Below, piece by piece: positions 2,225 to 20,124 of a DNA stretch of 64,000 nt. A model generated the notes under the pieces. The model was not told the origin of the DNA and did not search any database. It saw only the letters and a list, made by a program, of their open reading frames with translations. Location of the stretch: NCBI GenBank assembly GCA_038203255.1, contig JBBREE010000001.1, positions 31,882 to 95,881 of the forward strand. Direction: 5' to 3'. Every line of letters starts with the position of its first letter. The first letter of the stretch is position 1. The stretch is from Candidatus Moraniibacteriota bacterium (lineage in GTDB: Bacteria; Patescibacteriota; Minisyncoccia; Moranbacterales; UBA2206). The translations under genes were made by a program, and so were the position numbers.

Positions 2225-3271
2225 CTATTTTTTCTCGACTTCCTTTTCAACCTCTTTCGTAACTTCTTTTTCGCTTTCCTGTTCTTTTTCTTTTAATTTC
2301 TTATACACTTCTTTCGTTATTTCTTTAATCAATTTTTGATCAGCTTTTAAAGTGGCTTTGGCGGCTTCTCGTCCGACACCTAATTTAATTTCCCCGAAAG
2401 AATAGGAATTGCCCTTCTTATCAATTACTTCATATTTAGCTCCAGTGTCCAAAATATCCCCGGACGCACTGATGCCTTCATTATACATAATGTCAAATTC
2501 AGTGGTGCGGAAAGGTGGAGCTACTTTGTTTTTCACAATCTTTATTTTCGTGCGGTTCCCTACAATCTCATCACCTTTTTTAATTTGCGCAGAGCGACGC
2601 ACTTCGATTCTCACTGAGCAATAGAATTTCAAAGCATTACCACCGGTAGTGGTTTCTGGATTGCCAAACACCACTCCGATTTTCATTCTGATCTGATTAA
2701 TGAAAATAACCGTACAATTACTTTTGGCCACAATAGCCGTGAGCTTGCGGAGAGCCTGCGACATGAGTCTGGCTTGCCGTCCCATATGGGAATCACCCAT
2801 TTCTCCTTCAATTTCAGCTTTGGGCACCAGCGCCGCTACTGAGTCCACTACAATCACACTAATTTGGCCGGAATTAACCAAGGTCTCCACGATGTCCAGA
2901 GCCTGCTCACCATTATCCGGTTGAGAAATGAGCAGATCATTAATGTTCACTCCAATCTTTTTAGCATATTCCGGATCCAGGGCATGCTCTGCGTCAATGA
3001 AAGCCGCTGTGCCCCCGGCGCGTTGTGCATTAGCAATAATATGAAGCGTCAAGGTAGTTTTCCCGGAAGACTCCGGACCATACACTTCAATCACTCGTCC
3101 GCGCGGAATGCCTCCGATCCCAAGTGCAATGTCCAAAGAAATCGAGCCAGTCGGGATAGATTCTACGTCCACTCTTTTAATGTCCCCCAATTTCATGATA
3201 ATCCCTTCTCCGAATTTTTCTCTGATTTCGTCTACCACTCCATCTATCCCTTTGCTTTTTTCTTCTTTCAT
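2225..3271 (-). CDS. recA: recombinase RecA with a repetitive acidic/lysine C-terminal tail
   Basis: Walker [10 protein letters not shown]. RecA core IDAEHALDP...VDSVAAL...[24 protein letters not shown]-terminus [22 protein letters not shown]. Confidence 0.95.
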
Positions 3272-8999: not shown

Positions 9000-9071
9000 T
9001 CCGCGATAGCTCAATGGTAGAGCAATTGACTGTTAATCAATTGGTTCCAGGTTCGAGTCCTGGTCGCGGAG
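9000..9071 (+). tRNA. tRNA-Asn (GTT)
   Basis: Cloverleaf: acceptor TCCGCGA/TCGCGGA, D-stem GCTC/GAGC, anticodon stem ATTGA/TCAAT with loop CTGTTAA (anticodon GTT), T-arm CCAGG-TTCGAGT-CCTGG, discriminator G. CCA is not encoded. Confidence 0.85.
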
Positions 9072-9081
9072 CTAGTGCAAT

Positions 9082-9108
9082 TTAAGGCTTTTTAAAGCCT
9101 TTTTTTGT
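9082..9108 (+). terminator. rho-independent terminator after tRNA-Asn
   Basis: aaggcttttt aaagcctt hairpin followed by TTTTTT. Confidence 0.6.
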
Positions 9109-9213
9109 TGACAATCCTTGACTAAAAATAAATAGTGCGTTAATCTATATTGTTGCATTTATAAATTGAATAAAGCAATTTTAAAGTACCTTTTCAACTA
9201 TTGGAGGCATGCC

Positions 9214-10257
9214 ATGGATTTTACTAATGAACTTGAAAAAGCCAGGAAGATGGGTTGCGGAGACATCCGCAAGATATACCTTAATTTTATAGAAGTGTTA
9301 AGAGATTATATCAAAATCAGAAGTGTGTCGCTTCCCTTTCCATCAAGCAACCTAGTTCTTATTGGTGGAGGCTCTGGAATATCAACGGTCGGGAGATCTC
9401 TTTATGAAGTAGGCATCTCAAATTTTACATCTATAGCAAGCGTCATGGATGTTGGTGGTGGGAGTGGGGTCATTCAAGATAGATTTTGCATTCCTCACAT
9501 GAATGATGTAATGCAACACCTCATAAATATGAATCCCAGAAAAAATAAGTTTTCTGAATTTATGTCGCTACGAACATCTGACGAATGGAAGCAGGATGGA
9601 TATATCATGATAGCGGCGGCAGTTAACCTATTTGGCGTAGAAAGAGGAATTGACCTTATCGGTTGTCTATTAGAAAATGACCACAGAGCGCTTCCTGTTA
9701 CAAGCCAGCCGTGTGAGCCGATTTTTACTTACCGTGGCAGAGAGTATAAAACGTATGAATTCGCCTTTCTTCCCGATAAAATTGGCGTGGCGGATCATGT
9801 CAAACTTAATGTTTCAGCGAGCCTTCTGCCATCTGTGAGTAAATCTATACAAAACGCGAATGTAGCTGTAATTGGTCCGGGAGATATTCATTTTTCTATT
9901 CTTCCTCCAATGCTCGTGCCAGGAATGTATGAGGCCTTATGTCATGTAAGAAAGATAATTCTTATTGCTAATTTGACGGCGCGTAGAATTGACATCCCTG
10001 GCTTTACGCTCAAGGACTATATTGCCTTTTGGAAGAAAAAGTTACCACAAAAACCGAAATGCAATATTTTGGTTAATTCATTTCAAAACATCAATCAAGA
10101 AGATCCTCCCCTGAAAGATGACATTCACGGCGACTACTACATGGATTGCCACATTCATCGAGCTAACATCGCTGGACACAGCTTAAGCAGAAATAAACAA
10201 CCCCTTCATGATAAACATGCACTGGGGAAATCGCTTAAGTATATTCTAAATATATAG
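9214..10257 (+). CDS. CofD/YvcK (UPF0052) family protein, divergent
   Basis: LIGGGSGISTVGRSL...IASVMDVGGGSGVIQDRF aligns with the YvcK/CofD motifs (GGGTGLS..R.L / DDGGSSG). A later VAVIGPGDIHFSILPPMLVPGM matches the (V/I)IGPGSLYTS(I/V)LPNLLVPG motif. The ORF-track start at 9166 is TTG; an ATG at 9214 follows a GGAGG ribosome-binding site. Confidence 0.65.
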   Translation: MDFTNELEKARKMGCGDIRKIYLNFIEVLRDYIKIRSVSLPFPSSNLVLIGGGSGISTVGRSLYEVGISNFTSIASVMDVGGGSGVIQDRFCIPHMNDVMQHLINMNPRKNKFSEFMSLRTSDEWKQDGYIMIAAAVNLFGVERGIDLIGCLLENDHRALPVTSQPCEPIFTYRGREYKTYEFAFLPDKIGVADHVKLNVSASLLPSVSKSIQNANVAVIGPGDIHFSILPPMLVPGMYEALCHVRKIILIANLTARRIDIPGFTLKDYIAFWKKKLPQKPKCNILVNSFQNINQEDPPLKDDIHGDYYMDCHIHRANIAGHSLSRNKQPLHDKHALGKSLKYILNI

Positions 10258-10374
10258 TCCAGAAATAAAATTATCTAAACCCCTTACGCTGCCAAAGGAC
10301 AGCATAGGGGTTTTCTTTTTTGTATAAAAAAAGCGAGCTGGTGATTCAGCTCGCTTACTCGAAATTAATTTCAC

Positions 10375-11415
10375 TTAACGCTCTCTAGGTATCCAATAAA
10401 AAGTATACGAGGTATCCTCTATTGGATATTTGGTGAAATGCTTAAACTCCAAAGCGTTTATCATGATCGGCAGATACTCTAGCGGCTGTTCCTCTATTCG
10501 ATATTCCGGAACGATTGCTATAGAATACTTCCCAGTCCCTTTGGGAGAAGTAAGAATTGAAGCGCCATGCTGAGGAAGTGTATTGTTCCACGGCTTTGGA
10601 CAAAAACGATCTTTTTCCGTGAATGCAGCATCGATGTATAGGGATGTCCCAAAGATGTTATCAAAAAACCCCAACTCTTTTCGCATACGCCCAATCTTAT
10701 TTGCTTTCGCAACTACCCGACACGCTTCATCCCAAATTTCTGATGAGATTTTATTTCTAATCCAACTCCAGTTTTTAGCTTGTCGCTTACTATAAAGCAA
10801 ATCGAAAACTTCGCGAGGTATTGAATCATATGGCAACGATGTAGCTATTGCCAGTATTTCATCCATAGAGGATGCAGAAATATCAGAGCTATCAACAATA
10901 ACATCATAATCAGGAATCGCAATGATTCTTATGAAGTCAAAATGTTGCTCGGCCAAATTTTTCATTATCTCATGTTTTCGGACAATATCTCTATATGCCC
11001 AGCCAAGAGCATGAAAATGAGGCACCTCATCCCCAATAATGAGATCTATTCCTGGTTCATAATGATGTTTGATTTTCCTGTTGAGAATATCAAACCACCA
11101 GATTCCCCATAGATCACCTTTTCGTGGATAATTCAGCCTCTCGCGTAATTTCATAGTTGAAAGAGCCCCTCCGGAACATCCCCACGTCAGTCCAATTGGG
11201 ATTCTTGTCTCACTACTAATGGCCGTTTCGATGGAATTACGAATCTTTTGCTCTTCGAGCTCAGATATCGCTGTACGTGAATGCCTTTTGAGAATTCTTA
11301 TAATGGAGCTAGTTATATCCTTATCCCTCTTGGGGTTGTACCCGTCCATTTTTGCATCAATTGCCTGATTCATATTGTCAATTTGATCACTCAATTTTGT
11401 TACTAAATGCTCCAT
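10375..11415 (-). CDS. hypothetical 346-aa protein (no recognisable family), convergent with the CofD-like gene
   Basis: Long ORF with a GGAG ribosome-binding site before the ATG at 11415 (the ORF-track start at 11427 is GTG). Motifs GLTWGCSGGALS and PHFHALGW; no match recognised. Confidence 0.5.
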   Translation of the reverse strand: MEHLVTKLSDQIDNMNQAIDAKMDGYNPKRDKDITSSIIRILKRHSRTAISELEEQKIRNSIETAISSETRIPIGLTWGCSGGALSTMKLRERLNYPRKGDLWGIWWFDILNRKIKHHYEPGIDLIIGDEVPHFHALGWAYRDIVRKHEIMKNLAEQHFDFIRIIAIPDYDVIVDSSDISASSMDEILAIATSLPYDSIPREVFDLLYSKRQAKNWSWIRNKISSEIWDEACRVVAKANKIGRMRKELGFFDNIFGTSLYIDAAFTEKDRFCPKPWNNTLPQHGASILTSPKGTGKYSIAIVPEYRIEEQPLEYLPIMINALEFKHFTKYPIEDTSYTFYWIPRER

Positions 11416-11630
11416 ATTTATCTCCACGGTTTAGGATTTAGATGCATTTATATATTTATTAAAGAACAAGACATCGTACAATTAATATCACTTTATGTCA
11501 ATTTTTTTAATTTCTGGGAAGCTCTTATGTATAGAATTCCCAGAGATGTTTTATTTCAGCATTCTTGAAGCTATAAACATTAAGTGTTATAGTTATAATA
11601 TTATTTATTATTTTTTTATCATTCACCCAT

Positions 11631-12473
11631 ATGCCAAACTTCAAATTATCTTTCGTTATTGAAAAAAAACTCTTTGCTTTTTTGGATACCCCGGAAGATT
11701 CACTGATTGATTCCGTCCATTTAATTACTGAAAAATATGCGGACAAATATATTGTTAAAAACATAGAACTTCGCAATGATTCCTGCCCCGAAGAAGCTTA
11801 CCAAAAAATTATAGACCGCTTCAAGCCAGAAATAGAACAATTGCAAAAAGATGGATTTGATTTCACCTTGCACGCCGCGCGAGCTATCCAAGACTCGGAC
11901 AATCTAGATTATAAAATTCTTACTGTTTTGAAAAAAGATGTCGCTCTGGCAGAAACTCTCGGGATAGCAACTATAGTCACCCATGCTTCATTTAGCGTAC
12001 GCTCTCCCGAAGGAAAAAACTACTATTCCATAATGCACCTTTTGCCAGAATTGGATACTCTTAGCAAAGAAACAGGAGTAACAATAGCCATAGAAAACAT
12101 TTCACTTAAAAACGGCATCCTCCAAAATACGAACGATCATTTTTTCGTCCTAGATTTTATTAATAAGAATAATCTCCAGAATCTTGGAATCGCAATTGAT
12201 TTTGGCCATGCTCTTTCCTGTGGATTCAGTACTGATTACATTCTCAATGTCATTGAAAAAGCTAAGGAAAAACTTTTTCACATTCATGCGCATGAAACTA
12301 CTTTCGGTGAAGACTTGCATGCACCTCTTGCTGGAAAACTTGACTGGGGAAAAATTCTTCAGTCTTTAGAAGGCATAACTTATTCCGGAGTTTTCGTGCT
12401 AGAAATGCGCTCCCCTAGCCTTCCTAGTAGCCTAGAATATTTGCAAAGCATTGACGCCACATTTAAAAACTAG
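11631..12473 (+). CDS. sugar phosphate isomerase/epimerase (xylose isomerase-like TIM barrel / AP endonuclease 2 family)
   Basis: Motifs IVTHAS, IAIEN, IDFGHA and HIHAHE, typical metal-ligand strands of this TIM-barrel family. Confidence 0.65.
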   Translation: MPNFKLSFVIEKKLFAFLDTPEDSLIDSVHLITEKYADKYIVKNIELRNDSCPEEAYQKIIDRFKPEIEQLQKDGFDFTLHAARAIQDSDNLDYKILTVLKKDVALAETLGIATIVTHASFSVRSPEGKNYYSIMHLLPELDTLSKETGVTIAIENISLKNGILQNTNDHFFVLDFINKNNLQNLGIAIDFGHALSCGFSTDYILNVIEKAKEKLFHIHAHETTFGEDLHAPLAGKLDWGKILQSLEGITYSGVFVLEMRSPSLPSSLEYLQSIDATFKN

Positions 12474-12758
12474 CCTTTCACTCCTACAGTAAAAGCTAAT
12501 AAATCTAACTCCAATTTCATCTCTGCTATATTCAAGTGGCGTAACATATCCGTTAGGGGGAGCCACGAAAAATTCAAAAAAGACTAACCTAAACGGTATG
12601 GTCTTTTTTTCGTCTCGTGGCGCCGCCATCACTGAAAGCCTTTTATGTTAATCTTTTTTGTAAGTTTTTCGTGGTCGCGCGACGAACGATAGTGAGTTTT
12701 GCGCGACAACATTTTTGAGTGTTGTATAATAAAAACATAACCCAAAAACAAAATCATT

Positions 12759-12887
12759 ATGTTTTATGTTTATCTATTGGAATGTCAGGAAGCTGATGCA
12801 GTTGTAAGAGAAAAATTTCTCAAGGGCGGATCTGGTCGGACGTATCTTAAAAAACAGTTGAAATATTATTTAGAAGAAAAAATTTGA
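12759..12887 (+). pseudogene. GIY-YIG nuclease-like remnant (42 aa)
   Basis: MFYVYLLECQEADAVVREKFLKGGSGRTYLKKQL: a YVYLLEC start and a GxxGRTYLKK segment resemble the short GIY-YIG (YhbQ-like) family, but the middle is missing. Confidence 0.3.
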
Positions 12888-12959
12888 TTTTTAATAAGCT
12901 TTGCACGATAATCAAGGTAAAGTGCCATGGTACGTTACTAAAAATTAAATTAATATAAA

Positions 12960-13127
12960 ATGGAAAACAAAAAAGAAACAAGAAAATTAACCAAGACTGG
13001 GCGTGGGAGTATGTATGTGATTTTACCCAAAGAATTGATTGCTCACTTTGGCTGGCGCGAAAAACAAAAACTGACGGTGGAAAAAGTGAAGGGTGGGATT
13101 TTGATTAAGGATTGGAGGAAGAGATAA
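12960..13127 (+). CDS. AbrB/MazE/SpoVT-like small DNA-binding protein (55 aa), paralog copy 1
   Basis: MENKKETRKLTKTGRGSMYVILPKELIAHFGWREKQKLTVEKVKGGILIKDWRKR shows the swapped-hairpin pattern (TRKxTKxGGSxxVxLPKExxxxLG). A second copy lies at 19384-19551. Confidence 0.55.
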   Translation: MENKKETRKLTKTGRGSMYVILPKELIAHFGWREKQKLTVEKVKGGILIKDWRKR

Positions 13128-13193
13128 AAAAAGCCTCCAGTCCGCATTGCGAACCTTTGGCTTCTTGTGAAAAGAAAAAATGTTTTGAAATTA

Positions 13194-14075
13194 TTAGAGG
13201 CTTCCACCGGATTCTCGGATTTGATTATTTAATTCCTGAGCTTTAACTGCGGCCGCTTCTGCATAGTCTTCTCCGGAACTGGCGAATATAATGCCCGAAG
13301 ATGAGTTGATTGCAATCGAACCTGGTCCACTAAGGGACGCATGCACTGTCTGTTCGATAAACCCTCCTTGAGTTCCAATACCCGGAATGAGAAACCACAA
13401 CTTATCTCCTACCAGCTCTCGAACTCTTTTAAGATGAAAAGAAAAAATATCGCCCGAACTCTTGGGATACTCATGAGCAGCTGCCATAACCAGTCCGGCA
13501 TCTTCGGCAACACCAAGCTCTTCCGCCCATTTAAGAGTTGTCTTGGCAATAAATTCCCAATAAAGATCGCCAGATTCCAGCCGCACATCTTGGACTTCTC
13601 TTGCTGAAGAGTTGCTCGTATAACAAAGACCAACAATGGCTCTGCCGGGATTTTTAGGATCGACGAGCGATTGCATGCAATCTTTGCCCATATAGGGGCT
13701 AAAGTTCATGCCATCCACACCATCTAGATCAAACTGAGCGATCCTATAGCATGCTTGGGTTCTTCCGATATCCCCTCGCTTACAATCAAGAAAAACAGGA
13801 ATGTCTTCATGTTGTTTGTGAATATGCTGGACGATTTTACGAAGAGCCTTTTCTCCATCTGAAATTGCTTCGTAATGCGCCCGCTGAGGCTTAAACAATG
13901 AAGCAAACGGCGCCGTTTCATCAACAATCCTACACATCCAATGAGCCACTTTTTCCCAATCATGTTCGAACCCAACAATTGATGATGGAAGTTTCTCGAG
14001 CAATGGGTCAAGTCCCACACAGACCAGTGAATTTACTTTCTGTTGCCTTTGCGAAAGTTTCTGCCTGAATCCCAT
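13194..14075 (-). CDS. pyrF: orotidine 5'-phosphate decarboxylase, type 2
   Basis: LVCVGLDP and FLDCKRGDIG active-site motifs. Start placed at the Met of MGFRQKL (14075) because the ORF-track start at 14180 overlaps the upstream gene. Confidence 0.7.
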   Translation of the reverse strand: MGFRQKLSQRQQKVNSLVCVGLDPLLEKLPSSIVGFEHDWEKVAHWMCRIVDETAPFASLFKPQRAHYEAISDGEKALRKIVQHIHKQHEDIPVFLDCKRGDIGRTQACYRIAQFDLDGVDGMNFSPYMGKDCMQSLVDPKNPGRAIVGLCYTSNSSAREVQDVRLESGDLYWEFIAKTTLKWAEELGVAEDAGLVMAAAHEYPKSSGDIFSFHLKRVRELVGDKLWFLIPGIGTQGGFIEQTVHASLSGPGSIAINSSSGIIFASSGEDYAEAAAVKAQELNNQIRESGGSL

Positions 14076-14106
14076 AATTCTTCTCCTCTTCTGATTATTA
14101 TTTTTT

Positions 14107-14838
14107 TCACATCGTTGCCACAAGTTCATCCCAGTTTTCTTTAGCTGGAAGAGCGCGTGATCCTTTTTTACAGAACTCACATTCTTCCTCAGCCGGATTG
14201 ACTACGTATGTATTGTAATGCAAACGCCAGATCAATCGGCTACCGTCGATTATTTCGGGCGCGTCTTTGTCAGGCCTATGCACCAGAAGCGGAATGAAGG
14301 GAATGAAATCAACCTGACTTGGATTCCCCTTTCTGATTCCATCTCGGACAGCTTGAGTGGTGAGGCTAGTGGTCAAAAGTTCCTCCACATGTAGCACTCG
14401 CTCGCCCGGAGAAATCACGGCTTTTCCCCAAACCTGCGACTTATTAGATCCTTTTTGCATCGGGTGCCATTTTGCTTTCAAAATATTGGCCACATCTTTC
14501 GAAAGTCCCAACGCGGAAGAATCCGAACCGGTTACCCAGTCTATCGGACCCTTATAGAAAGATTCTAATAAATATACCAGTTGCTGAGCCATGATCTGAC
14601 AAAGATTGCTCCGTTGCAAAACCTTGGGGCAGTTGATATAAATATTACTATGCTTGCCACTTGTGAGAATTACGTGAGGAGCGGTTGGATTTTCCTGACC
14701 CGGATGATGCCAAAAGGCACCGCAAGCTTTGAAAATCATTTCAAGCTCTTCCTTAAGCAATATCCTCTTACAATCACGAGGATCGAGTCGCAAAATATCT
14801 TCATTGGTCAATCCTTGAAGCATTACCGGTATTGGCAT
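14107..14838 (-). CDS. pyrE: orotate phosphoribosyltransferase-like type I PRTase with N- and C-terminal extensions
   Basis: VILTSGKHSNIYIN (compare FTLKSGRKSPYFFN) and the PRPP-binding VLHVEELLTTSLTTQAVRDGIR (compare VMLVDDVITAGTAIRE). Adjacent to pyrF. Confidence 0.55.
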   Translation of the reverse strand: MPIPVMLQGLTNEDILRLDPRDCKRILLKEELEMIFKACGAFWHHPGQENPTAPHVILTSGKHSNIYINCPKVLQRSNLCQIMAQQLVYLLESFYKGPIDWVTGSDSSALGLSKDVANILKAKWHPMQKGSNKSQVWGKAVISPGERVLHVEELLTTSLTTQAVRDGIRKGNPSQVDFIPFIPLLVHRPDKDAPEIIDGSRLIWRLHYNTYVVNPAEEECEFCKKGSRALPAKENWDELVATM

Positions 14839-15002
14839 AATAACCTCCTATCTATTTTATTGTAATAATGTACAAAAAAGTTAGACCCCAAGTCTAACCT
14901 TCCTCATCTGAGTTGATGGTAGTAAATTTATGGATAAAAAGCAAGTATTTTAGGCTGAATGACTATTCGCAATATTTTTAACTTAAATCATGCTGAGGCC
15001 TT

Positions 15003-15038
15003 CATCAAGGTTCGAACTTCTTCCATCGCGCGGAGCCA
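15003..15038. repeat. 36-nt repeat catcaaggttcgaacttcttccatcgcgcggagcca, copy 1
   Basis: Identical 36-mer at 17656-17691. It ends in GGAGCCA, resembling a tRNA 3' end. Confidence 0.7.
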
Positions 15039-15046
15039 GATTACAA

Positions 15047-15072
15047 AAGAGCCCTTTCAAGGCTCTTTTGTG
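15047..15072 (-). terminator. hairpin/T-run terminator downstream of ddl (bidirectional-looking)
   Basis: agagccctttcaaggctctttt. Confidence 0.45.
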
Positions 15073-15138
15073 CTATTATGTCGGTTCGAATATTTCATAC
15101 CCCGCATTAGACGTTCGAACCAGTAAACTGTAAATTTT

Positions 15139-16203
15139 TTAATTCTTTTTGATCCTTTGGCGTTTCAGCGCTCCTTCAATAATTTTATCCAAAAAAACCG
15201 GAAAGCTCATCCCGTACGCAGCAGCGGCTTGGGGCGCAAGGCTAGTAGCGGTCATCCCAGGAATAGTGTTAATTTCAAGAAAATATAATTTATCATCATC
15301 TGCACTCCAAATGAAATCAGCTCGGGCCAGATCAATACACCCGACAGCCTTGAAAATTTTGACTGCATAACGTTGAATTTTTCTTTTAACGTCATCCGAA
15401 ATTTCGGCTGGACAGACTTCTTCCGATCCGCCTGTTTCATATTTCGCCCGATAATCAAACCACCCAGAAACTTTAGGGATAATTTCAATAACCGGAAGCG
15501 CCTTCGGAGCTTTGTCTCCTATTACTGCCACTGTAAGTTCTCTGCCTTTCACAAATTGTTCCAAAAGAACTTCGTTGCCATATTTTAAAGCCTCCTCTAT
15601 TCCAGAAATTAATTTTTCCTTAGAGGTAACCAAGCTTATCCCAACTGAAGATCCAAGCTCTGTTGGTTTTATAACGATTGGAAAATTTAATTTAGCAATT
15701 ATACTCACCGCGCTATATTTTTTATCCCGAGAAATCACTTCATCTTTAGCAATTTTTAATCCCGATGCCTTAGCAATAATTTTAGTCTTGCGTTTATGCA
15801 TAGCCAAAGCGCTAGCCAACGTTCCTGAAAAAACATACGGCAATCCGAGCATTTCCAGTGCGCCTTGCAACTTTCCATCCTCCCCAAAAGTTCCGTGGAT
15901 AATTGGCAAAACCAAATCAATTGGTGGAAATTTTTCCGGAAATTTATTCCTGTCTTCAAAAGAACTCCCGTTCCCCACTCCGCCCTCTCGACTAGCTCCT
16001 TCCAAATTTTCATCTAAATATTTTTGTCCCTCCTCACCCACTAGCCAATGTCCGGACTTAGTAATGGCAATAGGGATAATCTCATACTTATTCTTATCAA
16101 GCGCACTCATGACTTGATTAGCTGATCTCAAAGAAACTTCGTGTTCACCGGATTGTCCGCCAAAGATAACCGCTAATTGTTTTTTTGCGATAGTTTTTTT
16201 CAT
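15139..16203 (-). CDS. ddl: D-alanine--D-alanine ligase
   Basis: N-terminus KKQLAVIFGGQSGEHEVSLRSA plus the ATP-grasp body (EQFVKGRELTVAVIG...). Canonical Ddl. Confidence 0.9.
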   Translation of the reverse strand: MKKTIAKKQLAVIFGGQSGEHEVSLRSANQVMSALDKNKYEIIPIAITKSGHWLVGEEGQKYLDENLEGASREGGVGNGSSFEDRNKFPEKFPPIDLVLPIIHGTFGEDGKLQGALEMLGLPYVFSGTLASALAMHKRKTKIIAKASGLKIAKDEVISRDKKYSAVSIIAKLNFPIVIKPTELGSSVGISLVTSKEKLISGIEEALKYGNEVLLEQFVKGRELTVAVIGDKAPKALPVIEIIPKVSGWFDYRAKYETGGSEEVCPAEISDDVKRKIQRYAVKIFKAVGCIDLARADFIWSADDDKLYFLEINTIPGMTATSLAPQAAAAYGMSFPVFLDKIIEGALKRQRIKKN

Positions 16204-16342
16204 AAAATTAAAGTTAATATTTATACAAATGGTAGCTTGAATTGTTAATTATTGCAACAATATAACAGATTTTACTAAAAAAATAAAGCGGCTATCGAAA
16301 AACGACAACCGCCTGCTTCTGCCTTTGATGGAAAATTTTCCA

Positions 16343-17125
16343 TCAAGGTTCTATGTATGAGTAACAAGCAATCCCTCCCTTAACCAAGGCGTCCATCTGA
16401 TTACCAAAATTAAAATGCCACACCTCCGGGCCATAACAGGTAAATCCAGCCTTTACCATAGACCTAAGAAGAATGTTCCGATTCCGACATATTTTGGCAT
16501 CATTACCAGGAAATCTTTTTCTCTTAATTTTGAGATGATAGAAGGCTCCAGCATCATCTTTCATCCAATCAAATGGCACTCCGAGATTCTCAGCTTCCCC
16601 TTCCCTATAAAGCCACACGTCCACCGATCCTCCTGTCAAATGAGGGCTAGGGGAAGAAATTTCTTTCGTAGGCCAACTTACGTATGTACGATTAGCTTCG
16701 AAAATAACCTTTCTCTTTTCTGGAGAAAGACCATCAAAACACTCCTTAATGTTTTCAACAGAGACTAGTTTATCAAACTGTTCCTTAAGGCCAAACTTTT
16801 CCACTGTAAACAGTTTCATGTAATACCAAAAAAGATTCTCTTGAAGTTCCACCGATCTCCACCCATCATAAACCCTGAGATCAAAGCCCTGATTTTTTAA
16901 GGTTTCACGAACCGCTAAAGTCTTATGCAAAACCTCTTCTCGCAGATACAGCTTCTCGTTTTTTGCTATTTTTAATACGTGATAATAAAAAGAAAAAACG
17001 ATTTCTTCAGGAACCTCAATGAGTGGTTGATTATTTTCCTCGATCGGAATCTTTCTCCAATCACCCCGCCTATACGCCATCAATGTGACATACCTGACCA
17101 TTTGCAACTTGAGATAATTCAACAT
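16343..17125 (-). CDS. D-alanyl-D-alanine dipeptidase (VanX/DdpX, peptidase M15D)-like
   Basis: SPHLTGGSVDV (SxHxxGxAxD zinc motif) and EVWHFNFG (ExxH). The ORF-track start at 17143 is TTG; an ATG at 17125 follows a GGAGG ribosome-binding site. Confidence 0.65.
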   Translation of the reverse strand: MLNYLKLQMVRYVTLMAYRRGDWRKIPIEENNQPLIEVPEEIVFSFYYHVLKIAKNEKLYLREEVLHKTLAVRETLKNQGFDLRVYDGWRSVELQENLFWYYMKLFTVEKFGLKEQFDKLVSVENIKECFDGLSPEKRKVIFEANRTYVSWPTKEISSPSPHLTGGSVDVWLYREGEAENLGVPFDWMKDDAGAFYHLKIKRKRFPGNDAKICRNRNILLRSMVKAGFTCYGPEVWHFNFGNQMDALVKGGIACYSYIEP

Positions 17126-17486
17126 TTTGACCTCCTGTCCCAATTTTGAAGAATTGTTCTTCCTTTATCTGCTCCACTATTCTTTTCTTATCCATATATC
17201 TTATAACATCGAATGCACGACATGTTGTGTTGCGGCAAATATTAGGACGGTTATCATAATCAGTACACAATCCCGTTTTTACATTGAAATTGGTACAGAT
17301 ATATTGTTTAAGTCTAACTGTATCCGGATTTGATTCAGGGGCTAATATTCCTTCCAACTCTACAAAAGGAAGATTATCTCTTTCCGGATCTATAAGCCTC
17401 CTGCTGTTTATTTTCACAGGATTGCAGCACATACTACATCCAAACAACAGACAAACATTCGTTTTTTCTCCAATACATCCTTTCAT
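17070..17486 (-). CDS. Cys-rich protein with CxxxxCxxCC motif (YkgJ/UPF0153-like putative Fe-S/Zn chelating domain)
   Basis: CLLFGCSMCC near the N-terminus plus further Cys residues (CTNF, CTDY, CRNTTC). Overlaps the dipeptidase gene 5' end in another frame. Confidence 0.45.
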   Translation of the reverse strand: MKGCIGEKTNVCLLFGCSMCCNPVKINSRRLIDPERDNLPFVELEGILAPESNPDTVRLKQYICTNFNVKTGLCTDYDNRPNICRNTTCRAFDVIRYMDKKRIVEQIKEEQFFKIGTGGQNVELSQVANGQVCHIDGV

Positions 17487-17655
17487 GGCTACTCCTCCTA
17501 TAATAATATTGAGTTATGGGTCTTAGCTATGCTTTTGTCAAAGGACTTATTTAACTGTTTTCTCTATCAATTCTGTTCATATCCTGAGCATATTAGTCTA
17601 TCATCTTTTTGCAAGAAGTCAAAATTTATAATCCGCACTCTACTTGCGGTTACAG

Positions 17656-17711
17656 CATCAAGGTTCGAACTTCTTCCATCGCGCGGAGCCACAAAAAACT
17701 CAAAAAAGATT
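17656..17711. repeat. 36-nt repeat copy 2 (17656-17691), followed by a 20-nt right arm caaaaaactcaaaaaagatt that also occurs near 12574-12593
   Basis: The left arm is identical to 15003-15038. The right arm ggagccac[a/g]aaaaa[c/t]tcaaaaaaga[t/c]t is shared with 12566-12595. Confidence 0.7.
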
Positions 17712-17812
17712 GGAGATTAGTTGTTTTTGTATCATTTTCTAAAAGCATACTTGACTTTTTGTATCATAAATGATACAATTAAATCATAATTTAGCTATAT
17801 AATGATACAATT

Positions 17813-18895
17813 ATGCTAACTTACTCTAATTTAAACGCCAGACAACAATCTATCATAGACTTCGCAAAAGAAAAGCCGTCATTTCAAACGAAGGATGTTT
17901 TTTTGGCTGTCAAAGGAAAATTCGATGTCTCCCGCCTAACGGTTGTTCGCGATCTTTCATTTTTGGAAAAAAATGATGTCTTGAAAAAGCAAGGAGCCGG
18001 AAGAGCCGTGACTTATGCAATAACAAAAAAATATCTATCTCTCGAAAAAATTGACGTAGAAAAATATTTCTCAATTCCTTCTTCAAAAAGAAAGGCCGAC
18101 CCGCTATTCAACAATGATGTTTTTTCCATCTTAAACGAAAATCTTTTTTCAGAAGAAGAAATGAAAAAACTAAATTTAGCCAACGAAAAATATCTAAAAG
18201 CAAAAAATAAATTAGAAAAAGAAAGCCCCACGATTCTCAGAAAAGAATGGCAACGCTTAGTGATAGAACTATCCTGGAAATCATCTGAAATCGAAGGAAA
18301 CACCTACTCTCTTTTGGAAACCGAAGCGCTTCTTCGTGAGATGCGTTTTGCAAAAGGGAAAGATAGAGCAGAGGCGCAAATGATACTCAATCACAAAAAT
18401 TCCCTTGATTTTATCTTGTCCGACAAAAATTATTTTAAAAATATCAACCTTGATAAAATCAAAAAAATTCATGAGCTACTGACGGAAAATATAGACATCA
18501 AAAAAGATTTCCGAGATCATCCGGTCGGGATTACCGGAACAATCTATCGGCCTCTTCCAAGAAAAAAAGACATTACTTCGGCTATGGAAAAATTGAACGA
18601 CACTTTCTCACAAATTTCAAATCCTTTTGTGAAAGCCTTTGTTTCTTTGATTATGATTGCCTACATACAACCGTTCGAGGACGGAAACAAACGCACTTCG
18701 CGAATCATTGCCAACGCCATTTTGCACTCCCATGATAAATCGATTTTGTCCTATCGTGATGTCGATTCTATTGAATACAAAAAGGCTATGATATTGTTTT
18801 ATGAGAAAAATAACATTTCCTATGTAAAAGAAATATTCATTGCTCAAGTTGAATTTGCAACAGATAATTATTTTTCACAAAGTCAAAGTGGATGA
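17813..18895 (+). CDS. Fic-family protein with N-terminal winged-helix/HTH and a degenerate Fic motif
   Basis: The Fic core motif reads IQPFEDGNKRTSR; the canonical form is HPFx(D/E)GNGRxxR. An S-S-E-I-E-G-N segment matches the (S/T)xxxE(G/N) inhibitory-helix motif, and an N-terminal HTH is present. Confidence 0.7.
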   Translation: MLTYSNLNARQQSIIDFAKEKPSFQTKDVFLAVKGKFDVSRLTVVRDLSFLEKNDVLKKQGAGRAVTYAITKKYLSLEKIDVEKYFSIPSSKRKADPLFNNDVFSILNENLFSEEEMKKLNLANEKYLKAKNKLEKESPTILRKEWQRLVIELSWKSSEIEGNTYSLLETEALLREMRFAKGKDRAEAQMILNHKNSLDFILSDKNYFKNINLDKIKKIHELLTENIDIKKDFRDHPVGITGTIYRPLPRKKDITSAMEKLNDTFSQISNPFVKAFVSLIMIAYIQPFEDGNKRTSRIIANAILHSHDKSILSYRDVDSIEYKKAMILFYEKNNISYVKEIFIAQVEFATDNYFSQSQSG

Positions 18896-19199
18896 GGCAG
18901 ATATTGCTAAACCGTTTTAGATAGTATTAAAAATGATTTCCAAAGCCTTTTTTTGCTTCTCATCATTGACATCCCCTTTTCAAAATGCTACGATACAAAA
19001 TCGAAAAACGTTTCGATTTTAAGAGAAAGAGCAATCAAGCACATGAACAATTTCATAAAATGTTAATTGAAACAGGCTGAAGTTTTAGCTGAAACCAAAG
19101 ACAGGAAGACTTTGAAGCTTTCATATGTCATGGTTCGTGCCCTTTCTCTCGTTGAGACATCGGGAATCGGAATAACTCCAGGCATCTAATTTTACACAC

Positions 19200-19244: not shown

Positions 19245-19383
19245 TATTAACTAACGACTTCCCCATTCGCCTCTTACCCCATCCTGATTGATAATAGAAC
19301 TGACCCCGTAAAGGCTTGCGCCAACGGGGTAAACGTTAGGGATAACTTTAGGCTAACGTTAGTAAGAAATAATTTTAAAACAT

Positions 19384-19551
19384 ATGCAAAAGCAAAAAGA
19401 AACTCGAAAACTTACTAGAAACGGCGGCGGAACGATGTATGTTTCTTTGCCGAAAGAATTTGTGAAAGATTTAGGATGGCGTGAACGGCAAAAATTAGTT
19501 GTTGAAAGAGTGAAGAGTGGGATTTTGATTAAGGATTGGAGGAAAAGATAA
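19384..19551 (+). CDS. AbrB/MazE/SpoVT-like small DNA-binding protein (55 aa), paralog copy 2
   Basis: MQKQKETRKLTRNGGGTMYVSLPKEFVKDLGWRERQKLVVERVKSGILIKDWRKR. About 65% identical to the copy at 12960 and shares the identical C-terminus ILIKDWRKR. Confidence 0.55.
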   Translation: MQKQKETRKLTRNGGGTMYVSLPKEFVKDLGWRERQKLVVERVKSGILIKDWRKR

Positions 19552-19666
19552 ATTTCACAACCTATTTTTCCATATTAGTAAAATGTTCGGTCGAGGACGG
19601 TCCTCGATCTTTCCTCAATCTTTCAAGTAGAACTAAAAAATGGCCTTTTTCTATACACAAGGCTCT

Positions 19667-19846
19667 TTAACAAATAGTGTGTTGAATTAATATAAAGAGT
19701 GGTACGAAAGCGAGCATAACTTTAGCTATATAGTTATCAATATTTCTGAATCCAAATGATATTCTTTTAATCATTTTAATCTTGGTGTGTACTCCTTCGG
19801 TAAAAGCATTGGTAGAATAGTTGTCGAAATAATTTAGAATATTTTC
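19667..19846 (-). mobile_element. ISL3-family transposase C-terminal remnant (about 59 aa, no N-terminus)
   Basis: Minus-strand frame ENILNYFDNYSTNAFTEGVHTKIKMIKRISFGFRNIDNYIAKVMLAFVPLFILIQHTIC* matches the conserved ISL3 C-terminus (TNAxxEGxNNKIKxIKRxxYGFRNFxNF...). It has no start codon and no upstream transposase body. Confidence 0.6.
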
Positions 19847-19849
19847 TTT

Positions 19850-19943
19850 CCATCACCTGATTGGATGATCTTAAGGAAACTTCATGCTCACCAGATTGTC
19901 CGCCAAAGATGACAGCCAGTTGTTTTTTATTATTATTTTTCAT
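19850..19943 (-). pseudogene. duplicated 5' fragment of ddl fused out of frame to the IS remnant
   Basis: atgaaaaataataataaaaaacaactggctgtcatctttggcggacaatctggtgagcatgaagtttcc encodes MKNNNKKQLAVIFGGQSGEHEVS, nearly identical to the N-terminus of ddl at 16203. It runs into the transposase fragment in a +1 frame. Confidence 0.65.
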
Positions 19944-19992
19944 AAATATTTTTTAGCCTTATTTATAACTACCTTAAGGATATCAACTTGTC

Positions 19993-20030
19993 GCCTTTTT
20001 GCAAGAAGTTAGAAGTTATATCCCGAATTC
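19993..20030. repeat. second repeat family ctttttgcaagaagt[c/t]a[a/g]aa[t/g]ttata (copies at 17604-17640 and 19993-20030)
   Basis: About 28 of 38 nt are shared; each copy sits beside one of the other repeat or fragment elements. Confidence 0.4.
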
Positions 20031-20124
20031 TATTAAGGCAATAAATCATTCCCGTACCCGTAGTAAGAAAGAAAAACCCATCGCTCAATTGAGCGATGGG
20101 TTTTTTGAGAATTTTTTATATTTT

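Follow-up and report, generated by a model that had tools for sequence, protein, structure and literature searches.

Integrase-less cassettes and pseudo-tRNA-Asn tails at a candidate tRNA-Asn integration hotspot of a Moraniibacteriota bacterium

Introduction

Genomic islands arranged in tandem and bounded by 3'-end repeats of ssrA have been described in Dehalococcoides, where some islands carry no integration genes and where a conserved element-derived motif, with no match to ssrA, is located just upstream of each repeat (McMurdie et al., 2011; PMC3146451). Likewise, the accretion of cis-mobilizable elements (CIMEs) has been documented, and CIMEs have been proposed to be mobilized in trans (PMC5704250). 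Here, we analyzed a 64,000-nucleotide stretch of the genome of Candidatus Moraniibacteriota bacterium (assembly GCA_038203255.1, contig JBBREE010000001.1, positions 31,882 to 95,881; hereafter the window), in which two identical 36-nt repeats located downstream of a tRNA-Asn(GTT) gene bracket an operon encoding the D-Ala-D-Ala ligase Ddl. Its Ddl, Fic and OPRT-like proteins assign the window to Candidatus Moranbacteria/Moraniibacteriota. On balance, we favor the reading that the 36-mer carries one half of an attachment site resembling a tRNA-Asn tail, and that cassettes devoid of integrase genes were accreted at tRNA-Asn by site-specific recombination acting in trans.

Of the known systems, the ssrA islands of Dehalococcoides and CIME accretion come closest. 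The locus resembles the former in having tandem islands downstream of a single small-RNA gene, direct repeats of the 3' end of this gene, strain-variable cargo, and a conserved element-derived motif before the repeat that does not align with the target gene; the islands lacking an integration module have been proposed to be cis-mobilizable in that system (McMurdie et al., 2011; PMC3146451). It differs in its target (tRNA-Asn instead of tmRNA), in the length of the shared repeat (~6-8 nt, CGGAGC.., against 20 bp), in the much smaller size of its cassettes (1-3.5 kb), and in its host, a member of the candidate phyla radiation (CPR). Furthermore, no CcrB-like integration module was found in the arrays examined here, with one large serine recombinase encoded on a distant comparison locus (L020).

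As in CIMEs and other products of site-specific accretion (ICESt1/ICESt3 family; PMC5704250), the segments are flanked by att-like sequences, lack integrase and transfer genes, stand in tandem at one target and have internal junctions of hybrid att type. The ddl segment shows the features by which a CIME is recognized, namely perfect direct repeats (36 bp) and no recombination or transfer genes among its ddl, M15 peptidase and CxxCxxCC protein genes. Unlike for CIMEs, no cognate integrative and conjugative element (ICE) or integrative and mobilizable element of the same att specificity was identified here. No CPR bacterium is known to carry ICEs of the ICESt1/ICESt3 type.

The locus also recalls the tRNA islands generated by tyrosine integrases (Islander principle; PMC4383910), which combine a regenerated tRNA gene at one boundary with the native flank and a displaced 3' fragment at the opposite one, a likeness based on one junction of the window (site A) and on the half-tRNA remnants of L008 and L010. 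In contrast to such islands, no integrase adjoins the tRNA gene here, the displaced fragments are very short, and the conserved sequence ending in the repeat (the L-core unit, or L-unit) is distinct from the resident tail, of which it is not a copy, and has 5 extra nt. tRNA-Asn is a well-known integration target in Enterobacteria. Finally, small cargo modules, co-oriented short sites, the lack of an own recombinase and circles that are possible in principle are shared with integron arrays (attI/attC) and with the pdif modules of Acinetobacter; unlike integrons, the locus has no IntI, no attI and no paired attC structure, and its cassettes carry their own promoters in either orientation. A literature search on tRNA islands in CPR bacteria returned nothing relevant.

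The 36-nt repeats and the native flank of tRNA-Asn

An initial annotation of the window had reported an identical 36-mer at 15003 and 17656. An exact search confirmed two copies, and only two, of CATCAAGGTTCGAACTTCTTCCATCGCGCGGAGCCA (15003-15038 and 17656-17691, both on the + strand; sites B and C in Table 1). Allowing up to 3 mismatches revealed no additional copy in the window, and the 36-mer had 0 matches in 100 shuffles. The 20-mer right arm described after the second copy was also found, at 17692-17711, while a diverged copy of it, placed at about 12574-12593, does exist (3 mismatches, 17/20) but lies ~8 nt away, at 12566-12585, where it is indeed preceded by a different left sequence, 'gttagggggagccac'. 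When GGAGCCAC is included, 24 of 27 positions match between 12559-12585 and 17685-17711 (0 expected by chance). A weak third match of the right arm (17/20) at 673-692, in the housekeeping part of the window and far from the hotspot, looks like an A-rich chance match. Regarding the shared core, its short length held, whereas the exact form GGAGCCA did not: because the final A varies among related units, (C/T)GGAGC(C) fits better.

The related genomes explain this core and the right arm (R). A scan of the genome collection with GGAGCNNCNAAAAANTCAAAAAAGA identified 10 loci, nearly all from metagenome-assembled genomes (MAGs) of Moraniibacteriota or Parcubacteria. R is located directly 3' of a complete tRNA-Asn gene in six of these loci, and L027 provides a seventh case (contigs L007, L011, L013/L004, L014, L015, L016 and L027). 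The tRNA genes end in GGAGCCAC or GGAGCTGC, and several of them encode the CCA (...TCGCGGAGCCAC). In L004/L013 (GW2011_GWE2_35_2-), a complete tRNA-Asn(GTT) gene ending in ...CGTCGGAGC is directly followed by TG-CGAAAAACTCAAAAAAGACTACC, and then by a terminator hairpin and short CGTCTCG(T/C)... repeats that precede a GIY-YIG gene and an AbrB/MazE-like gene. Since R directly follows the complete tRNA-Asn gene in these relatives, GGAGC(CA) corresponds to the discriminator and CCA end of tRNA-Asn(GTT), and R to its native 3' flank. These tRNA tails and R flanks, together with the junctions described below, support the initial proposal of modular, att-like arms derived from the 3' end of tRNA-Asn. 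The 3' end quoted at the time matches the tRNA-Asn(GTT) gene of the window itself, and the full tRNA gene that was to be sought elsewhere in the genome is present within the same 64 kb.

In the window, the tRNA-Asn gene has the same orientation as the 36-mers, and a foreign arm (TAGTGCAATTTAAGGC..) takes the place of the native flank directly behind it. This flank is found 3.5 kb downstream at site A, which aligns over more than 150 nt with the flanks of true tRNA-Asn genes and is followed by GIY-YIG and AbrB genes in the order seen in L004. Considering that the native flank is 3.5 kb away from the tRNA gene and that unrelated sequence abuts the tRNA 3' end, the region 9073-12558 constitutes an insert (insert 1), for which the seven relatives in which R abuts the tRNA gene provide the empty-site state. 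The tRNA-Asn gene of the window is, in this respect, a classic occupied tRNA site. The 12.5-kb site, which had been regarded as a partner of the 36-mer pair, is instead the old chromosomal junction of this different insert. No integrase was identified in insert 1 by Pfam. The TAGTG-type arm with which it begins is found elsewhere after the L-unit of L011 and after the Fic gene of the window.

A candidate decoy of the tRNA-Asn tail

The left arm of the repeats corresponds to an L-core unit of ~29 nt, GGTTCGAACTTCWTCCA-N6-GGAGC, which is present in 11 loci besides the window. In L012, GGTTCGAACTTCATCCAGCTTTCGGAGCCAC stands before R and is clearly recognizable as the motif GGTTCGAACTTCTTCCATCGCGCGGAGCCAC of the window; L012 belongs to the same MAG as L015, with a complete tRNA-Asn and R, and as L006, with the closest ddl operon (84% amino acid identity). 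A metagenome scan with GGTTCGAACTTCWTCCANNNNNNGGAGCC identified six more contigs, each with a different N6 and with unrelated flanks on both sides, and further units are present in loci fetched for other reasons (L010, 6642; L011, 2523; L022, 8136; L027, 5425). A profile of ten L-core units, none of them from the window (R1; consensus nGGTTCGAACTTCnTCCA-N6-GGAGC), detected only 15009-15037 and 17662-17690 in the window (E=6e-8; next match E=0.29), and the real tRNA-Asn tail obtained no R1 score.

Compared with the real tail (GGTTCGAATCCnnnTCGCGGAGC), the L-unit retains the T-loop-like GGTTCGAA and the core (C/T)GGAGC, and it has ~5 extra nt and a derived CTTCWTCCA. The 36-mers of sites B and C likewise combine the core with GGTTCGAA, and their identity to the resident tRNA is limited to 8 nt (CGCGGAGC). 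In addition, the L-unit replaces the tRNA in L-core-R junctions of three other genomes (L012, L010 and L027). The comparison points to a distinct, conserved decoy tail, and not to a decayed copy of the local tRNA. A reading of the 36-mer as the terminus of a genuine tRNA, or of some other RNA, was rejected since ARAGORN and Rfam (gathering and E-value modes) call neither copy. A possible 5' acceptor partner, TCCGCAC (17632-17638), is part of the promoter-region repeat D6 and absent from copy 1, and no complementary 5' acceptor strand was found upstream of the L-units, whose upstream flanks differ at each locus. An internal hairpin (TTCGAA/TTCGGA), examined as a general feature, occurs only in a subset of units.

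Other observations concern the surroundings of the units. At site B, the L-unit and its right arm form a 113-nt unit (15009-15121), with 9-bp inverted ends (GGTTCGAAC/GTTCGAACC) and a central hairpin, that folds better than shuffles (z=-3.1) and has a counterpart of equal length in L022 (5772-5884). This is the only version with inverted ends in the window, and no target-site duplication was seen. The first 11 nt of the 36-mer (CATCAAGGTTC) occur in a third exact copy at 16341-16351, within the intergenic hairpin between ddl and the M15 peptidase gene and inside the repeat-flanked segment (0.02 occurrences expected in the window); this copy may be left over from another junction or be due to chance. 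A hairpin-rich sequence of ~110 nt is conserved upstream of the units of L010 (6523-6640) and L017 (505-622) and absent from the others, and could be an arm region of the attachment site of one element family.

Exchange of arms at GGAGC

In every combination of arms, the breakpoint is located directly after GGAGC (Table 1). The left arms include complete tRNAs, a tRNA 3' half (L008, L010), a short remnant and the L-unit, and the right arms include R, the TAGTG-type hairpin arm, a ATTACAAAAGAGCC hairpin arm with a second GGTTCGAA, a AAATTAAGAAAG arm, and others. The clearest swap is found in L010, where one right arm of ~210 nt is present behind a tRNA-Asn half (1555) and behind an L-unit (6670). 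The att-like nature of the sites, as first suggested, is consistent with this pattern; a simple assignment of three loci to attB, attL and attR is not, as the array looks multi-layered, with at least three kinds of right arms.

The L-units are downstream of tRNA-Asn, or of its remnant, and co-oriented with it in all five loci in which one of these is in view (window, L010, L011, L022 and L027), and their strand follows that of tRNA-Asn whatever direction the neighboring genes take. The cargo varies among genomes and includes the ddl operon, Fic, RAYT, an oxidoreductase and others. A small array of this kind is present in L022, in the order tRNA-Asn, RAYT-like gene, degenerate unit, Fic, unit, two-gene cassette, unit.

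Table 1. Coordinates of the features of the tRNA-Asn locus (window positions unless a locus is named) and junction types.
Feature	Position	Strand	Basis or description
tRNA-Asn(GTT), hotspot anchor	9000-9072	+	ARAGORN; Rfam 75 bits; ends ...GGTCGCGGAGC
Insert 1 (3.5 kb)	9073-12558		between tRNA-Asn and native flank
Hairpin arm 'TAGTG..', start of insert 1	9073-9125
CofD-like gene, insert 1	9166-10257	+	Pfam
350-aa ORF, unknown, insert 1	10375-11427	-	Pfam scan
Xylose-isomerase-like TIM barrel gene, insert 1	11631-12473	+	Pfam
Site A	12559-12720	+	core GGAGCCAC and full native flank: A-rich stretch, terminator hairpin 12581-12611, CGTCTCGTGGCGCCGCC repeats; tRNA body replaced
GIY-YIG remnant	12759-12887	+	conserved tRNA-Asn chromosomal neighborhood
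AbrB/MazE-like gene	12960-13127	+	conserved tRNA-Asn neighborhood
OMP-decarboxylase-like gene	13194-14180	-	Pfam
OPRT-like gene (243 aa)	14107-14838	-	Pfam, translation
36-mer copy 1 (site B)	15003-15038	+	L-core unit GGTTCGAACTTCTTCCA-TCGCGC-GGAGCC at 15009-15037
Site B right arm	15039-15121	+	hairpin ATTACAAAAGAGCC..GGCTCTTTTGTGC, then second GGTTCGAA motif
ddl	15139-16203	-	Pfam
M15 VanX/VanY-like peptidase gene	16343-17143	-	Pfam
CxxCxxCC protein gene	17070-17486	-	Pfam scan
Promoter-region repeat D6 of ddl operon	17580-17642		repeat analysis
36-mer copy 2 (site C)	17656-17691	+	L-core unit at 17662-17690
Site C right arm	17692-17711	+	truncated 20-nt copy of native tRNA-Asn downstream flank (R)
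Fic cassette	17725-18970	+	operator-like repeats, Fic 17813-18895, TAGT-type hairpin arm ~18917-18970
AbrB paralogue	19384-19551	+	remains of resident locus
REP-like palindrome GTCGAGGACGGTCCTCGA(C)	~19588-19606; L022 3680-3698, 4403-4420; L010 1816-1830
Promoter repeat D6' of second ddl	19970-20032		71% identity to 17580-17642
Junction tRNA-R	7 relatives
Junction tRNA-TAGTG arm	window 9072
Junction L-R	window site C, L012, L027
Junction L-TAGTG/TAGCA arm	L011, L022 unit 3
Junction L-ATTACAAAAGAGCC arm	window site B, L022 unit 2		113 nt each

The ddl cassette and a second, disrupted ddl

The 36-mers form direct repeats around a 2,617-bp segment (15039-17655), which is not delimited by base composition. 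The operon it carries is the only intact D-Ala-D-Ala ligase operon of the window, has its own promoter and is antisense to the L-units; the same gene order is found in L006. Its Ddl shares 78-84% identity with the Ddl of related Moranbacteria, suggesting that it is probably an ordinary D-Ala-D-Ala ligase. The pairing of ddl with a VanX/VanY-like M15 D-Ala-D-Ala peptidase gene is reminiscent of van clusters.

A second ddl is located ~3.7 kb to the right of the operon. Besides its promoter region (Table 1), only its first 31 codons survive (19851-19943, - strand; 83% nucleotide identity), and they are joined to 61 C-terminal residues of a transposase of the ISL3 family (Pfam E=1e-15; 19667-19852, - strand). 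The resident ddl was thus destroyed by the ISL3 insertion, and the intact operon between the repeats would be a replacement copy.

Proposed mechanism and alternative explanations

In the model that we propose, the attachment site would consist of two halves, the L-core unit on the side of the element and, on the chromosome, the tRNA-Asn 3' end (core GGAGC(CA)) with its native flank R. The region from 9073 to ~19350 would represent a tRNA-Asn-anchored pile-up of small islands, in which cassettes of ~1-3.5 kb without an own recombinase accumulated by repeated site-specific recombination at the core, catalyzed in trans. In each event, the tRNA or an L-unit, as left arm, would be joined to R or to the hairpin arm of an earlier cassette, as right arm, leaving a left junction tRNA-core-P' and a right junction P-core-B', where P is the L-unit and B' is R; repeated events would generate internal P-core-P' junctions, such as site B, and a terminal P-core-B' junction, such as site C. 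Both 36-mers share the otherwise hypervariable N6 and the 6 nt upstream of the L-unit, which argues that they are products of one recent event and not independent units. They could be the junctions of the most recent or still reversible event, and recombination between them would yield a 2,653-bp ddl circle and leave one L-core-R junction. The sequences themselves show the anatomy of the locus, the identity of its modules, the swapping of arms at GGAGC, the co-orientation of the units with tRNA-Asn and the variability of the cargo. With no integrase found, recombination at these sites is something that we infer, as are the participation of a recombinase, its type (tyrosine or large serine), its location and the order of events.

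Several results weigh against this model. Among the 37 ORFs of the window scanned against Pfam (Phage_integrase, Resolvase), none encodes a tyrosine or serine recombinase, and none was found beside the units or remnants of L008-L012, L017, L019, L021 and L022; the sole recombinase seen, and the one lead to an enzyme that could mobilize the segment, is the large serine recombinase of L020 (2-1195), encoded 12 kb from its unit. It is on account of this absence, in the window and next to the units, that we propose a mechanism acting in trans. No allele without the ddl segment between the 36-mers was found in the collections or in the contexts of Ddl and OPRT-like homologues, which are too variable, and no circular-junction sequence of the ddl segment was found. 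The full 36-mer is absent from the viral contigs of the public collections, and its 22-nt 3' part from their genome and metagenome contigs. Moreover, the identity of the L-unit to the real tRNA is short (CGGAGC plus GGTTCGAA), the apparent conservation of its 17-mer was partly imposed by the metagenome search pattern, and the sequences used for comparison all come from MAGs or metagenome contigs. By eye and by MAFFT, site A and the post-Fic junction are similar to degenerate L-units, but they are not significant by R1, and we do not count them as such. The joint presence of full tRNA-R and truncated L-core-R in the same genome (L015/L012, L027, and sites A and C of the window) is unexplained by one-step integration, and a single tRNA integration does not predict the length of R in the L-core-R junctions (20 nt in the window, ~34 in L012, 10 in L027); the explanation would be either an R-like P' arm in the site of the element itself or the use of R as a target by later insertions. 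Finally, the two copies of R (A and C) and of AbrB in the window imply an additional rearrangement, perhaps linked to ISL3.

Alternatively, the units could be passive scars and not active att sites, that is, old 3' fragments of tRNA-Asn and copies of its flank remaining from integrations long extinct, with the 36-bp pair generated between two such scars by ordinary RecA-type or illegitimate recombination or by gene conversion, around an immobile ddl operon. No recombinase is encoded in cis, recA itself is in the window (2225-3271), R arms are cut at different lengths in different L-core-R junctions, and other rearrangements that are not site-specific have affected the region, including the ISL3 remnant, the duplications of AbrB and ddl (72-83% identity) and the GIY-YIG deletions. 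However, neutral decay would not produce the same derived 17-mer, with its CTTCWTCCA insert, in at least 10 unrelated contexts beside 6 nt that differ completely, nor would many independent junctions break at one position just after GGAGC, and 36 bp is short for efficient RecA recombination. We therefore consider this explanation unlikely, although it deserves more weight than the remaining ones. It is less probable still that the L-core unit, or the 113-nt unit, is a non-autonomous repeat similar to miniature inverted-repeat transposable elements (MITEs) or repetitive extragenic palindromic (REP) sequences, or a terminator or regulatory module, and that it spreads or is conserved independently, its proximity to tRNA-Asn being incidental. 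The inverted ends, hairpin and folding of the 113-nt unit and its constant length in L022 would suit such a repeat, as would the RAYT/Y1 transposases and REP-like palindromes of the same hotspots and the lack of a tRNA-Asn in view in L017-L021. On the other hand, just two units are present in the 64 kb of the window, both within the tRNA-Asn hotspot; ~150 kb of other Moranbacteria sequence is free of units except for one, itself downstream of tRNA-Asn; site C, L012 and L017-L021 hold only the 29-nt L-core part; and the units share the strand of the tRNA and not that of the adjacent genes, with no target-site duplications and no Rfam match. With two copies only, and inverted ends restricted to the 113-nt version, membership in the MITE/REP class proper was rejected.

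It is very improbable that the repeat arose by chance, or that the metagenome assembly is a chimera joined at the shared 36-mer. The source is a MAG contig, and exact searches of the public collections with the 36-mer returned no match, the matches in these collections coming only from degenerate patterns (none came from looser L-patterns in viral contigs or from a BLAST search of phage and plasmid collections with the unit). Against an artefact stand the absence of any match in the shuffles and the presence of the same module combinations in assemblies made independently from different samples. Current assemblers also finish with k-mers longer than a 36-bp repeat. Two known site types were also compared and rejected: integron attC, in view of the lack of an integrase and of RYYYAAC/GTTRRRY cores in the L-unit and of cargo that has its own promoter and the opposite orientation, and Xer/dif-like 11-6-11 sites, since the arms of the L-unit are not that imperfect palindrome.

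Other genes and repeats of the hotspot

The conserved neighborhood of tRNA-Asn has itself undergone changes in the window. Compared with the 96-aa homologue of L004, its GIY-YIG gene has lost ~50 internal codons in frame; intact GIY-YIG genes adjoin tRNA-Asn in several relatives (L004, L008 and L027). Between the tRNA-Asn terminator and the GIY-YIG gene, repeated short units (TTTTTCGTCTCGTGGCGCCGCC ... TTTTTTGTAAGTTTTTCGTGGNCNCG...; 12612-12720) are conserved across Moranbacteria (L004, 19480-19700; flanks of L007, L014 and L015). The 55-aa AbrB/MazE-like gene is present twice, at 12932-13128 and 19356-19552 (197 nt, 72% identity), bracketing a 6.2-kb block that comprises the pyrF/OPRT-like pair, the ddl cassette and Fic; the relatives have AbrB beside GIY-YIG (L004) or directly upstream of ddl (L001).

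The pair of genes similar to orotidine monophosphate (OMP) decarboxylase and orotate phosphoribosyltransferase (OPRT) is found in unrelated contexts in relatives. A leader of ~110 nt upstream of the OPRT-like gene (14839-14955) is conserved with the homologues of L023 and L026 despite these unrelated contexts, and could act as a regulatory RNA in cis; across the window, no Rfam family attained its gathering score, and an E-value scan of 14850-15200 gave chance-level matches only.

The Fic protein of L011 is 68% identical to that of the window and has the same operator region; its gene is located ~350 nt downstream of the tRNA-Asn flank, with an L-core unit directly after it. The operator-like repeats upstream of the HTH-Fic gene (TGTATCAT...TGTATCATAAATGATACAATTA...ATGATACAATTATG; 17725-17812) are also found in L011, L027, L028 and L029, suggesting autoregulation and a promoter that travels with the gene. 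In L022, the palindrome GTCGAGGACGGTCCTCGA(C) flanks a RAYT-like Y1 (IS200-type) transposase gene right after tRNA-Asn, and Y1_Tnp genes are also present beside tRNA-Asn or R in L010 and L027.

Implications

The locus appears to be of a known kind, a tRNA/tmRNA-anchored accretion of islands with cis-mobilizable, integrase-less members. The apparent novelties are the CPR host, the very small cassettes, the conserved decoy of the tRNA-Asn tail at the junctions, a target identity of ~6-8 nt and what looks like the rescue of the essential ddl gene. In CPR bacteria (Patescibacteria), genomes are minimal and mobile elements are poorly known, and an array anchored on tRNA-Asn, made of cassettes that lack recombinases and marked by a conserved decoy tail, would offer a concrete mark of gene flux that can be searched for, and for which profile R1 is already usable as a search tool. 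As a practical consequence, short GGTTCGAA...GGAGC fragments in CPR genomes would be better annotated as island boundaries than as degenerate tRNA genes. In addition, the tRNA-Asn tail and the L-core unit would serve as defined DNA substrates for finding the responsible recombinase.

More speculatively, Moranbacteria and related CPR bacteria could possess an undescribed integron-like system on tRNA-Asn, a possibility to which we give less credence than to the accretion itself. Its modules would carry their own promoters and decoy tails of ~29 nt, a dedicated recombinase encoded elsewhere would act in trans, and the ddl operon, Fic, nucleotide-metabolism genes and defense genes would be its cargo. 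In the genome described here, gene flux appears to have replaced the essential cell-wall gene ddl after its destruction by an insertion sequence. If such a system exists, organisms with tiny genomes could exchange, and even rescue, essential genes such as ddl.

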